Of a DNA stretch of 47,257 nucleotides, positions 43,137 through 45,908 are shown in pieces. The notes under the pieces were generated by a model. It searched no databases. It saw only the letters and a list, made by a program, of their open reading frames with translations, and was not told the DNA's origin. Position 1 is the stretch's first letter; every line of letters starts with the position of its first letter. The DNA lies in contig JASHQG010000152.1 in assembly GCA_030037665.1 (NCBI GenBank), positions 1 to 47,257 on the forward strand. Reading direction: 5' to 3'. This DNA comes from Acetobacteraceae bacterium. GTDB lineage: Bacteria; Pseudomonadota; Alphaproteobacteria; Acetobacterales; Acetobacteraceae. Made by a program: the position numbers and the translations under genes.

Positions 43137-45908
43137 GTGCCACCTTCAAACGCTAACCCCGTCCGCCTGGAAGGCAGTGAGCGTTCCCATTTGCCCGGCA
43201 CGCGGCGCGTCCGCGCCGCCAATCCGGACGACATCCTGCGCGTCATAGTGATGCTGCGGCCGCGCGGGGATGCGCCGCCACCGCCGGACACGACGCAATG
43301 GGCGAAGCTGCCGATCCGGCAGCGCAGTGCCGCATCGCACCATGCATCGGCCGCGGATTACGGCGCCGCGCGGGCGGATGCTGATGCGGTTGCTGCCTTC
43401 GCGACTGCGCGCGGCCTGACAGTCGTCGAAATCAGCCTGCCACGCCGCATGATCGAGCTATCGGGTACAGTCGCGCAGATCGATCATGCCTTTGGCGTCA
43501 GCCTCGGGGTCTACGAAACGCCGGACGAGACCTATCACGGACACGACGGACCGATCCACCTGCCGCACGACATCGTCAACCTGGTTGCCGCCGTGTTTGG
43601 CCTGGACAATCGCCGCATGGCCTTTCGCGGCGGTGGGCCGGGCGTGACCATCACCCCGGTCACGCCGCCACAGATTGCAAGCCTGTATGGGTTTCCCGCC
43701 ATCCCGCCGGCGATCGCGCACCAGACCATCGGCATATTCGAATTCGGCGGTGGTTACGTGACCGACGCCGCCGGCCATGCGACGGATGCTGACCTGTTCA
43801 TGGCCGGGCTCAATCCGCCGTTGCCCAACGTCAAGATGTTCAACCCGCCCGTCTCGATCCTCGGCGCGCCCAACGCACCGGGCACCGCTGCGCATCCCAA
43901 CGGTGGCGACGGCGAGGTTATCCTCGACATCGACACCGCCGCTTCAGTCGCGGTTGGTGCGACCATCGCCGTCTACTTCGCGCCCTGGTCCGAGGCCGGT
44001 TGGGTCAAAGCAATCCAGACCGCCGCGGTACCCCTGGCCGGCGAGCCGACGCCGTCGGTCGTCTCGATCAGCTGGAATGCTCCCGAAGCGTCATTCAGCG
44101 CAGTCCAGCTCAAAGCCATGAGTCTGGCCTTTCAAGTGGCCACCACCGCCGCCACCAACGCCATCACTTTCCTGGTTTGCTCGATGGACGACGGCACCAA
44201 GGGCGGCGTCCCGGACGGCGCGGCGCATGTCTGGTGGCCTGCGATCGATCCCTGGGTGACCGCTGTCGGCGGTACGACTATTGGCGACATCTCTGGACAT
44301 TCATTCGACGAGATCACCTGGAACGACAACGGCATCACCAGCGGCGGCATCAGCACCGTCACCGATGGCAGTGGCCACTTGGTGTTTCCGCTGCCGTGGT
44401 GGCAGGCCGGCGCCAACGTACCGCCCTCGATAAACAACGGCACGACGCGCGGGCGGGGCATTCCGGATATCGCCGGATACGCCAACGGCTATGCCACACT
44501 CATGTTCGGCAATCCTGCCGGAACCTGGTGGGGTACCAGCGAGGCTGCCCCGTTTTACGCCGGGCTGGTCGCGATCCTGAACGCGACGCTTGGCACCAAT
44601 CTCGGCTACCTCAATCCGCTGCTCTACGCTCTGGCGGAAACGCCCGGCTTCGACATCTTCCACGACATCGACGACGGCCGTAACAACTCCGACACCTTTA
44701 CGCTGCCGCCACCGAATCCCCCGACCAAAATCACCACGCCCGGCTACGTCTCCATCAAAGGATGGGACGCGTGCACGGGATGGGGCAGCATCAGGGGCAA
44801 CCGGCTGCTGGGGGCGCTGGCGTCCCTGCCGATTGTCGCCACTGCCATTGCCAGTGGCGGCAGGTTCGGCAATGCCTGCGTGGCATCGTTCGTCGATGAG
44901 ATCCTGACCATCAACAACAGCGGCTTCGGACTGCTGGCGATCTCCAACATCACATCGTCCTCGACGGACTTCCTGGTGCCCAGTATCAGTGCCTATCCGC
45001 TGCTGGTCAGTGTTGGCGGTTCGATCGACGTGGTGATCCGCTTCCAGCCGGTCAGCGCCGGATCGAAGACCGCCACAATCAAGATCTTCAGCAACGATGC
45101 GGCCAGTCCTCACAGCATTACCGTCTCCGGCGACGCGGTGACGCCACGGCTGGATCTGGTGATCGCCGACAAGGGCGATTTCGGAGCTTGCTGTGCTGGG
45201 AGCTTCGTCGACCGGCCGCTGGTTCTGAGCAACGGCGGAAAGTGCCCGCTGTCGATCACCGACATCACCGCCTCCTCGGCCGATTTCGTCGTGCCGGAGG
45301 TGCTGTCCTATCCGCTCTCTATCGCGCCTGGCGCCGCGCTGTCGCTGCCGATCCGGTTCGCCCCGACCAGCCTGGGCAGCAAATCCGCGATTCTGACAGT
45401 GACCAGCAACGATCCGGCGAGCCCGCACAGGATCGACGTCTCCGGCGATGCGCCGCCCGGCAAGCTGAGTGTCACCGGCACGACCATTTTCGGCGGTGTG
45501 AAGTGCTGCACCAGCGAGCAACGTACCGTGTCGCTGTGCAACTCTGGCGGCTGCGAACTGCACGTCTCCGAGGTCACGCTGCGGCGCCAGCACCACGCGT
45601 ACCGTCTGATCAACAACCCGTTCCCGGCAACGCTGCGACCGGGCTCGTGCCTGAGCGTTGTGGTACAGTATCGTGCAATTGAGAAGGAACCCAGGGCGTG
45701 CGAGCTGGTGATCCATAGCGACGACCCGAACGCGCCGGTCACCTGCCTGGACGTCGTCGCGCACACTATCTGGGACTGCTGCTGCGGATGCTGCGACGAG
45801 CAAGGGAAGTCATGCTGCGGCAAGCGATCGAAGGAGTGCTGCAAGGAGCATCGCCGCGAGTGCTGCGACGAAGACCGGAACGAGAAGGCGGATGCTTACG
45901 CCATGTAG
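43137..45908 (+). CDS. Sedolisin (peptidase S53, kumamolisin-like) fused to three beta-sandwich repeats and a Cys-rich tail
   Basis: Domain evidence:
- An N-terminal pro-kumamolisin activation-domain pattern starts at residue ~8.
- Catalytic signatures: GEVILDID (Glu/Asp), WWGTSEAAPFYAGLVAIL (Ser) and the Ca-site GWDACTGWGS.
- Three ~105-aa repeats span aa 564-878.
- The tail is DCCCGCC...ECCDEDRNEK.

A strong SD (AAGGAGG) lies 5 nt before the GTG. An in-frame stop at 43092-43094 excludes a longer N-terminus. No signal peptide is visible. Confidence 0.85.
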   Translation: MPPSNANPVRLEGSERSHLPGTRRVRAANPDDILRVIVMLRPRGDAPPPPDTTQWAKLPIRQRSAASHHASAADYGAARADADAVAAFATARGLTVVEISLPRRMIELSGTVAQIDHAFGVSLGVYETPDETYHGHDGPIHLPHDIVNLVAAVFGLDNRRMAFRGGGPGVTITPVTPPQIASLYGFPAIPPAIAHQTIGIFEFGGGYVTDAAGHATDADLFMAGLNPPLPNVKMFNPPVSILGAPNAPGTAAHPNGGDGEVILDIDTAASVAVGATIAVYFAPWSEAGWVKAIQTAAVPLAGEPTPSVVSISWNAPEASFSAVQLKAMSLAFQVATTAATNAITFLVCSMDDGTKGGVPDGAAHVWWPAIDPWVTAVGGTTIGDISGHSFDEITWNDNGITSGGISTVTDGSGHLVFPLPWWQAGANVPPSINNGTTRGRGIPDIAGYANGYATLMFGNPAGTWWGTSEAAPFYAGLVAILNATLGTNLGYLNPLLYALAETPGFDIFHDIDDGRNNSDTFTLPPPNPPTKITTPGYVSIKGWDACTGWGSIRGNRLLGALASLPIVATAIASGGRFGNACVASFVDEILTINNSGFGLLAISNITSSSTDFLVPSISAYPLLVSVGGSIDVVIRFQPVSAGSKTATIKIFSNDAASPHSITVSGDAVTPRLDLVIADKGDFGACCAGSFVDRPLVLSNGGKCPLSITDITASSADFVVPEVLSYPLSIAPGAALSLPIRFAPTSLGSKSAILTVTSNDPASPHRIDVSGDAPPGKLSVTGTTIFGGVKCCTSEQRTVSLCNSGGCELHVSEVTLRRQHHAYRLINNPFPATLRPGSCLSVVVQYRAIEKEPRACELVIHSDDPNAPVTCLDVVAHTIWDCCCGCCDEQGKSCCGKRSKECCKEHRRECCDEDRNEKADAYAM
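44826..45770 (+). repeat. Three tandem ~105-aa protein-domain repeats (choice-of-anchor-D / ASH-Hydin-like beta-sandwich) inside the S53 gene
   Basis: Units lie at 44826-45140, 45141-45452 and 45453-45770. They share the pattern FG-x-C/V-x-S-x...L-x-N-x-G...L-x-I-x-x-I...DF-x-VP...P-x-x-I/V-x-x-G...F-x-P...G-S-K-x-A-x-L/I-x-I/V-x-SND-x-x-SPH-x-I-x-VSGDA. The third unit is the most diverged. Confidence 0.7.
45789..45884 (+). repeat. 24-nt periodic repeat x4 (TGCTGC + 18 nt) encoding CC-x6
   Basis: Units: tgctgcgacgagcaagggaagtca / tgctgcggcaagcgatcgaaggag / tgctgcaaggagcatcgccgcgag / tgctgcgacgaagaccggaacgag. They are preceded by TGC TGC TGC GGA at 45777-45788. Confidence 0.85.

Follow-up and report, generated by a model that had tools for sequence, protein, structure and literature searches.

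A cysteine-rich tail of putative metal-binding type in an undescribed, widely transferred C-terminal module of leaderless peptidases and propeller proteins

The stretch of DNA analysed here, 47,257 nucleotides of contig JASHQG010000152.1 from an Acetobacteraceae bacterium (hereafter the window), encodes a peptidase of the S53 (sedolisin) family that ends in a run of densely packed cysteines. Our analysis suggests that this ending is a cysteine-rich tail of metal-binding type, carried by an undescribed and widely transferred protein module. In particular, the tail and the immunoglobulin-like (Ig) domains that precede it appear, on sequence comparison, to form a portable C-terminal unit of which no earlier description was found. 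The gene is present in the list of open reading frames (ORFs) as a complete coding sequence (CDS) for 923 amino acids (aa), on the + strand from 43137 to 45908, with the stop codon TAG at 45906-45908. Its parts are given below, where AF2 stands for AlphaFold2 and pLDDT for its predicted local distance difference test.

43137 to 45908, + strand: complete CDS of a leaderless pro-S53 peptidase with three Ig domains and a Cys tail (homologues of 36-95 % identity; AF2 full-length model with mean pLDDT 85.9)
43197 to 43610, + strand: pro-kumamolisin activation domain (prodomain), residues ~21-158 (PF09286, E=5e-12; aligns to pro-kumamolisin 1T1E)
43653 to 44822, + strand: S53 (sedolisin) catalytic domain, residues ~173-562 (phmmer against PDB; Foldseek)
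44832 to 45140, + strand: Ig domain 1 (Ig1), choice-of-anchor D or HYDIN-VesB-like, residues ~566-668 (NF012200, 1.4e-34 with three stretches; PF22544, 5e-20; AF2 beta strands)
45150 to 45452, + strand: Ig domain 2 (Ig2), residues ~672-772 (Pfam, NCBIfam and AF2)
45465 to 45770, + strand: Ig domain 3 (Ig3), residues ~777-878, with 7 Cys, directly preceding the tail
45777 to 45866, + strand: poly-cysteine core, residues 881-910 (CCCGCC, then three CC pairs; 11 Cys in 30 residues)
45867 to 45905, + strand: acidic, charged end DEDRNEKADAYAM, residues 911-923 (family-wide acidity of the last 12 residues)

The polypeptide closes with ...HTIW-D-CCCGCC-DEQGKS-CC-GKRSKE-CC-KEHRRE-CC-DEDRNEKADAYAM-stop. 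The first Cys codon stands at 45777, and all 11 cysteines (residues 881-883, 885-886, 893-894, 901-902 and 909-910) are encoded by TGC. The sequence-only reading that drew attention to the tail had counted eleven Cys in 30 residues, and the ORF translation confirms both the tail and the count; the 44 residues that it gave from W-D to the final M are in fact 45, and of its four CC pairs after CCCGCC three really follow, four being reached when the last CC of CCCGCC is included. Among the five CC starts of this tail, those at 885, 893, 901 and 909 keep a period of exactly 8 residues, thereby defining four CC-x6 units (CCDEQGKS, CCGKRSKE, CCKEHRRE and CCDEDRNE). Such an array is not to be expected by chance, as cysteine makes up 1.5 % of the protein elsewhere and the binomial P for at least 11 Cys in 30 residues is ~3e-13; moreover, CC-x6-CC-x6-CC occurs a single time in the six-frame translation of the whole 47-kb window. 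At the DNA level, the proposed 24-nt repeat is detectable but weak: TRF reports 1.9 copies with a 77 % match, and a repeat search of the tail DNA yields one 28-nt pair, 75 % alike. A repeat as weak as this suggests that the periodicity is kept at the protein level by selection and not by recent slippage, and units only ~75 % alike point to an old array that has been maintained. A recent repeat expansion is ruled out by the same figures (units ~75-77 % alike) together with the conservation of the tail across phyla. No segment of the tail is hydrophobic, and its longest stretch free of charged residues and of His, Asn and Gln is CCCGCC, so that the earlier statement that it is unlike sorting signals in this respect stands; likewise, no transmembrane segment and no LPxTG, PEP or GG motif was found in it. 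In the AF2 models it is unstructured, with a pLDDT <50 in the full-length model and of 48-59 with a 121-sequence alignment, and no docking onto the catalytic domain is seen; the tail is thus predicted to have no autonomous fold.

The sequence-only reading had left room for a strain-specific expansion. On comparison, the tail proved to be conserved in homologues: about 50 S53 proteins that share the architecture have one, at identities between 95 % and ~40 %. S53 relatives without Ig domains are also without the Cys tail. Across 115 unique tails, on which the following figures rest, the median length is 43 residues, with a poly-cysteine stretch of 23-66 residues, and the family consensus reads CGCKxCCxDCRKGCCxKxHxxxCCxxxxxxCCDD followed by an acidic end. 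Ten columns are dominated by Cys, the conserved ones containing it at 63-92 %, the spacers are variable, and one His column is conserved (62 of ~85). The composition of the tail departs from that of the rest of the protein for Cys (22.8 % against 1.7 %), His (4.8 % against 1.8 %), Asp+Glu (28 % against 8.7 %), Lys+Arg (14 % against 6.3 %) and V+L+I+M+F+W+Y (about 3 % against about 30 %), with F+W+Y at 0.9 % in the tail. The last 12 residues have a median net charge of -5, and of -3 or lower in 83 % of tails. All of the motif types CxC, CC and CxxC are found, the consensus itself holding CGC, CC and CCxDC; a tail may have from 6 to 14 Cys, and the number of CC-x6 units varies between 4 and 6 among close relatives. 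Replacements in the conserved Cys columns are Gly or Ser, which are one-step neighbours of TGC. Successive CC dipeptides lie most often 8 residues apart (83 cases); CC-x6-CC is present in 50 of the 115 tails, and three in register in 15. The strict periodicity that had been claimed is therefore a property of the clade of the window, while family-wide the arrangement of Cys is more complex, with CC-x6-CC as its commonest spacing, and a comparison of the sequences suggests that the tail of this clade is a regularised derivative of the family framework.

The best-conserved part of the module is the domain on which the tail is mounted. Specifically, Ig3 reaches 58 % mean column identity across fusion types, with the hallmark motifs GGVKCC, ISxCNxGxC, PGSCL, SDDPxxPV and VxAxTIW, and in the alignments its cysteines C27, C32 and C64 are invariant across six fusion types; its AF2 pLDDT is >90. 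The DNA of Ig1 and Ig2, for its part, retains a 49-nt direct repeat at 82 %. In general, the module consists of two to four Ig domains of choice-of-anchor D/HYDIN type (three in the window), a Cys stretch and a poly-acidic end, and the tail is always a C-terminal extension of an Ig domain, on host enzymes of 700-1200 aa. About half of the loci recovered below match the query only at residues ~555-894. The N-terminal partners of the module in complete proteins are:

32 of 66: S53 peptidase
17 of 66: BNR/Sortilin and Kelch propellers
9 of 66: short BNR
7 of 66: S8 subtilases, in three subtypes
1 of 66: M14 carboxypeptidase

When one genome per species was scanned for the Ig and tail region, 86 relatives were returned, from which 80 loci were taken, each from a different assembly. 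The 86 species genomes belong to at least 10 phyla, and the carriers include Acidobacteriota, Acetobacteraceae, Nitrosospira, Nitrosovibrio, Nitrosomonas, Paraburkholderia, Polaromonas, Methylocapsa/Methylocella, Mycobacterium, Solirubrobacterales, Planctomycetota, Verrucomicrobiota, Chloroflexia, Nitrospirales and Desulfobacterales, as well as a metagenome-assembled genome (MAG) labelled Methanosarcinales; the taxonomic labels of MAGs may be imperfect. They derive mostly from soil, peat and mire projects. Carriers available in culture include Nitrosospira briensis Nsp8, Nitrosovibrio sp. Nv6, Nitrosomonas sp. Nm51, Paraburkholderia sp. GAS41, Polaromonas sp. C04 and Mycobacterium sp. OTB74. 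Copper-dependent nitrifiers (Nitrosospira, Nitrosovibrio, Nitrosomonas) and Methylocapsa/Methylocella are among them (L027, L030, L045, L050, L051, L026, L062), which may reflect nothing but the choice of soil samples, or may hint at Cu(I) as the metal concerned. In nine loci (L009, L065, L066, L071, L072, L074, L075, L085, L088) the gene is split by frameshifts, which could reflect long-read assembly error in these MAGs or genuine pseudogenisation.

What is new is a conserved module absent from family databases. A profile of the tail alone, which with its 48 positions has little power and could miss weaker analogues, gave 10 matches among 1.84e9 representative proteins, all at the extreme C-terminus and all after Ig3. 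The profile of Ig3 plus tail found at least 345 clusters at 90 % identity in a collection of 5.8e9, mostly short fragments that show abundance and not architecture. Proteins bearing the module are annotated mostly as 'hypothetical'. The tail had no match at E<=10 in NCBIfam or Pfam (six representative tails against the latter), its profile had none at E<=10 among PDB chains, and no NCBIfam sorting-signal model matched the window protein at E<=1; neither the module nor the tail was found described in the searchable literature. These results agree with the earlier view that the tail is unlike the known sorting signals, and no known metallothionein family was matched either. The search then proposed, for four successive CC-x6 units, was run over metagenome contigs at the DNA level and was uninformative: it returned at least 120 such stretches, and every match listed was a (TGY)n microsatellite or a simple repeat of hydrophobic kind, without charged spacers or Ig3.

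The distribution of the gene among genomes indicates that it travels by itself. Window positions 42985-45909 have copies of 73-90 % nucleotide identity, set in unrelated flanks, in L009 (a MAG labelled Acidobacteriaceae), L010 (labelled Acetobacteraceae), L007 (an unlabelled metagenome contig) and L011 (an Acetobacteraceae MAG). In L009 the identity is 90 %, confined to the gene and <=150 bp upstream of it, and in L010 and L007 it is 82 %, likewise confined. As the similarity stops there and the flanks are unrelated, the gene evidently moves alone; whatever the accuracy of MAG labels, the unrelated flanks are direct evidence, and the comparison has the look of a recent horizontal transfer of one gene. 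In the 92 % relative L209, synteny extends over 42845-46092 and 46749-47257; between the two, a ~650-bp stretch downstream of the gene (46093-46748) is unaligned to L209, which has 562 bp there, and its ORFs have no Pfam match. It is probably a variable or indel region. A phage, plasmid or defence origin of the module is not supported, since tblastn against INPHARED and PLSDB gave no match, and none was found in IMG/VR or PADLOC. Separately, the phage 'hydrolase' family phrog_18474 matches window positions 44829-45400 (Ig1-Ig2) with E=9e-31, in the Ig fold region only.

No partner gene accompanies the module either. The neighbours were surveyed in 84 loci, whose 3276 ORFs were clustered all-vs-all, and in five annotated contexts. 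In the 84 loci, no neighbour is common to different fusion types, and no cognate sortase-type processing or export gene is linked; in the loci and contexts together, no linked maturase, exporter, Dsb-like oxidoreductase or metal-homeostasis function was detected. An adjacent radical-SAM or other maturase, as in ribosomally synthesised and post-translationally modified peptides of SCIFF/ranthipeptide type, was seen neither in the annotated contexts nor in the neighbour clusters. Features of a type I secretion system (T1SS) are missing too, the protein having no GG.G.D (RTX) motif and the 84 loci no conserved neighbour of the ATP-binding cassette (ABC) or membrane fusion protein (MFP) type; the one ABC-F cluster that appeared, represented in 8 loci, resembles a housekeeping ATPase.

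As originally proposed, the enzyme that carries the tail in the window belongs to the S53 peptidases and has choice-of-anchor D domains, points on which Pfam, NCBIfam and PDB matches agree. PF09286 scores 46.7 bits over residues 21-158 (cut-off 23.5), and phmmer against PDB gives 3.7e-75 for 1T1E and 1e-60 for kumamolisin-As. The catalytic Glu260 and Asp264 lie in GEVILDI, the oxyanion Asp in DDG (351-353) and Ser468 in GTSEAAP, aligning to E78, D82, D164 and S278 of kumamolisin. In Foldseek, the AF2 model matches 1T1E with E=3e-41 and a template-modelling (TM) score of 0.87 (range 0.87-0.89, normalised to the target). For the Ig domains, NF012200 reaches 118.9 bits against a cut-off of 45, in three stretches, and PF22544 72 bits. 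The N-terminal 562 residues thus resemble kumamolisin and kumamolisin-As (PDB 1T1E, 1SIO), with 36-42 % identity and the triad kept; whereas kumamolisin ends after the catalytic domain, the window protein continues into the Ig domains and Cys tail. Peptidases of the kumamolisin type are acid-active and extracellular (PMC11294657).

Despite such a profile, the protein has no N-terminal signal peptide. Its start is fixed by a conserved ribosome-binding site:

43124 to 43131, + strand: Shine-Dalgarno sequence AAAGGAGG, 5 nt ahead of the GTG start codon

The start codon, GTG in the window and ATG in relatives, comes after the conserved AAAGGAGG, and the ORF leaves no room for a start farther upstream; in the alignment, AAAGGAGGCAACA(A/G)TG is kept in the window, L007, L009 and L010. 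The polypeptide therefore opens directly with the prodomain, as in pro-kumamolisin, and in the AF2 model strands begin already at residue 8. A hydrophobic N-terminal segment was found in 0 of 64 complete module-bearing proteins. S53 relatives without the module (P0056-P0120), which have other C-terminal domains or none, are leaderless too. The same applies to close S8 relatives that have a different C-terminal domain in its stead (P0253-P0370), 119 of 120 being leaderless. At the position of the module, sister S53 proteins carry fucose-lectin, FG-GAP/VCBS or DUF346 domains. Whole enzyme lineages are leaderless, with interchangeable C-terminal appendages of which the Ig-Cys module is one. Two unannotated C-terminal domains were also observed in leaderless S53/S8 proteins, ending in '...GDFEGF...SIILR' and '...AIRQLYxGEEVGRVTW...'.

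Among the functions suggested at the outset, a metallothionein-like one fits best the composition, the motif types, the variable Cys number and the predicted disorder of the tail. We tentatively favour a metal-thiolate tail, comparable to metallothioneins or to the plant protein HMA4, that would act by itself as a tether or clasp, a proposal that we judge rather likelier to fail than to stand. According to it, the tail alone would be unstructured, and its CC, CxC and CxxC motifs, together with one His conserved in most clades, would wrap metal, forming thiolate clusters with soft or borderline ions such as Zn(II), Cu(I) or Cd(II). Metal loading would produce a compact C-terminal knob on the enzyme. 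This knob would need no partner protein of its own and, placed where sister enzymes bear binding domains of lectin or propeller type, would most plausibly serve as a tether or clasp that depends on metal. The binding of metal, the identity of the metal and a role in tethering, rather than in storage, regulation or stability, are points that we infer. The tethering role is suggested by the sister S53 enzymes with lectin or propeller domains at the same position. Variable numbers of Cys and of units fit thiolate clusters and would not be tolerated by a fixed disulfide knot. Similarly, the lack of a partner and the single-gene mobility fit an intrinsic chemical property better than a signal dependent on machinery, and hosts labelled Desulfobacterales and Methanosarcinales point to surroundings unfit for disulfide formation.

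Known systems offer two partial likenesses. Metallothioneins (mammalian MT, SmtA/BmtA, MymT) are Lys-rich and have 20-30 % Cys in CxC, CC and CxxC motifs, as the tail does; they contain virtually no aromatic or hydrophobic residues, vary in Cys number between families, are disordered without metal, and in the apo form likewise have no autonomous fold. The tail agrees with them in composition (22.8 % Cys, where 15-30 % is typical, and next to no aromatics), and departs from them in matching none of their described families and in not being free-standing, since metallothioneins are small independent proteins whereas the tail sits on large enzymes; nor are its 8-residue CC period and poly-acidic end features of theirs. 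In HMA4, a C-terminal tail with 13 CC pairs binds at least 10 Zn, its di-Cys motifs having nanomolar affinity (PMC10654040); it shows repeated CC pairs providing Zn binding of high capacity and affinity, and offers an analogy in function. The tails of HMA4 and HMA2, which are plant P1B-2 Zn/Cd ATPases, share with the module a charged, non-hydrophobic C-terminal extension with many CC pairs. They differ in being eukaryotic, in belonging to a membrane pump, on its cytosolic face, and in serving as sensor and autoinhibitor of a transporter, while the hosts of the module are peptidases and propellers; their spacing is irregular and followed by a His stretch, in place of the acidic end found here. 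No sequence homology links the two, HMA4 and HMA2 have no Ig domains, and the tail profile finds only its own family.

Several considerations weigh against the metal-thiolate proposal. S53 peptidases act outside the cell at acid pH, where Zn-thiolates are labile, so that Cu(I)-type metals or loading in the cytoplasm would be needed. Any peptide so rich in Cys binds metal, and binding may therefore be incidental. No Pfam metallothionein family or PDB chain was matched at E<=10, and no metal-homeostasis gene or metal-sensing riboswitch is linked to the gene. A ligand-swap test at the conserved Cys columns was negative, His, Asp and Glu being depleted there (His at 0.54x background). Finally, the Cys count is even in 70 of the 115 tails, a slight excess that suits disulfide pairing.

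That excess is one of the reasons to consider a disulfide cross-linking or anchoring tail, whose CC pairs, after release into oxidising surroundings, would form intermolecular disulfides and so tie the enzyme covalently to its own kind, to proteins of the envelope or matrix, or to organic matter with thiols. We regard this as unlikely, with something to be said for it. The host enzymes are exo-enzyme types, but they are made without a signal peptide in the reducing cytoplasm, with no linked Dsb-like oxidoreductase in the 84 loci, and hosts include MAGs labelled as anaerobes (Desulfobacterales, Methanosarcinales). Conserved Cys are found in Ig2 and Ig3 too, as in extracytoplasmic Ig domains; the conserved His column of the tail, on the other hand, plays no part in disulfide chemistry. 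Promiscuous cross-linking would tolerate variable numbers of Cys and units and is compatible with the predicted disorder, yet 39 % of tails have an odd Cys count, and the spacers are highly charged and not of the Pro, Ser or hydrophobic kind used by structural cross-linkers. Moreover, S53 enzymes work at acid pH, and thiol-disulfide chemistry is slow under that condition. A likeness exists to keratin-associated high-sulfur proteins and cysteine-string motifs, which share dense, repeated CC dipeptides; these are eukaryotic and without homology to the tail, have Pro/Ser/Gln or hydrophobic spacers instead of Lys/Arg/Asp/Glu, and act by disulfide cross-linking or palmitoylation.

A broader possibility, which we consider doubtful, is that the module is a self-contained deployment device for leaderless exo-enzymes, providing Sec-independent release or a covalent or metal tether to the envelope, minerals or organic matter. 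Such a device would work in monoderms and diderms alike and hence be swappable between enzyme classes and able to cross phyla as one gene.

More doubtful still is a novel C-terminal export or sorting signal, in which Ig3 and the Cys/acidic tail would be read by unlinked machinery that exports or anchors leaderless enzymes. All 64 complete module proteins are indeed leaderless, with catalytic domains typical of exo-enzymes, and this could mean that the module replaces the signal peptide; the idea is weakened by the S53 and S8 sisters that are leaderless without the module. The tail occupies the position that PEP-CTERM, LPXTG and GlyGly-CTERM take, by family definition, after choice-of-anchor Ig domains, and six N-terminal domains that are unrelated to one another have the module in common, as would suit a targeting device, with an acidic extreme C-terminus in the large majority of tails. 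The comparison goes no further than position. With respect to the systems PEP-CTERM/exosortase, LPXTG/sortase, GlyGly-CTERM/rhombosortase, MYXO-CTERM and the C-terminal domain of the type IX secretion system, the window protein is without signal peptide, signature motif, transmembrane helix and basic tail, it gives no match to NCBIfam sorting-signal models, no sortase-type gene is nearby, and neither RTX repeats nor ABC/MFP neighbours point to a T1SS. To our knowledge, every known sortase-type anchor presupposes an N-terminal signal peptide. In addition, no neighbour is conserved in the 84 loci, and the gene crosses phyla alone, among monoderms (Mycobacterium, Solirubrobacterales) and diderms, so that a dedicated machinery would not travel along. 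The suggestion of a novel anchoring or sorting tag made by the sequence-only reading has consequently lost ground.

An Fe-S or redox regulatory tail, or a thiol switch, by which the state of the zymogen or of the module would differ between the cytoplasm and the medium after release, appears highly improbable. Dense Cys, a conserved His and a zymogen architecture with a prodomain would suit it, and in HMA4, too, the tail works as an autoinhibitor or sensor (PMC10654040). The consensus, however, has no canonical Fe-S spacing (CxxCxxCxxxCP and the like), the number and spacing of Cys are too variable for a defined cluster, AF2 shows the tail unstructured and undocked, and the tail is also found on non-protease propellers, where there is nothing obvious to regulate. 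As to a functionless low-complexity expansion at the 3' end of the gene, to which the shifting number of units among close relatives and the weak 24-nt period would lend themselves, it is effectively refuted by conservation, since about 115 unique sequences, from at least 10 phyla and with six types of fusion, have kept the tail, and by the binomial P given above.

If the tail binds metal, stable and acid-active enzymes would be offering a natural poly-Cys tag, compact at 30 residues and regular in its CC-x6 grammar, with a bearing on metal capture, enzyme immobilisation and the coupling of metals and enzymes in soil. The module also draws attention to the leaderless S53/S8 lineages with interchangeable C-terminal appendages; a self-contained deployment device, if true, would open a first way into the deployment of leaderless peptidases, those of kumamolisin type and their relatives. 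As the gene is near-identical in genomes that are unrelated, it also makes a clear example of degradative enzymes being exchanged one gene at a time between bacteria of peat and acid soil, ammonia oxidisers and relatives of methanotrophs, and such exchange bears on protein turnover in peat and acid-soil ecosystems.

Two upstream neighbour genes do recur, and they track the N-terminal domain and not the tail module. With Sortilin-type fusions, a small (~100-130 aa), extremely charged protein containing PEPTPEAYARALEQWKNLPGSVVRPPTD ends at the start of the big gene (L024, L032, L033, L035-L037, L039, L040, L042, L060, L064). With short-BNR fusions, the upstream gene encodes a ~250-aa protein with SEHDPDWWIARVAV...VLFANSxDIAWYKSPKLHEG, which tracks the BNR domain (L012, L017, L019, L021, L025, L026, L031, L038, L049). 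Neither protein belongs to a Pfam family.

In the window, a gap of ~800 bp (42332-43136) separates the S53 gene from a metallophosphoesterase gene (41744-42331); it contains no Pfam-recognisable ORF, Rfam match or sigma-70-like promoter match. Around the gene, an Rfam scan gave no match, and sigma-70 promoter and terminator scans gave nothing of use. One upstream element was recognised:

43008 to 43023, + strand: TGTGACATAGCTCATA, pattern TGTGA-N6-TCAYA (CRP/FNR-type), aligned and kept in L010 and L007

The pattern occurs once in the window and at least once in 8 of 100 shuffles. Lying ~115 nt 5' of the start codon, the element is inside the ~150 bp that travel with the gene, and it is possibly a regulator site that moves together with it.

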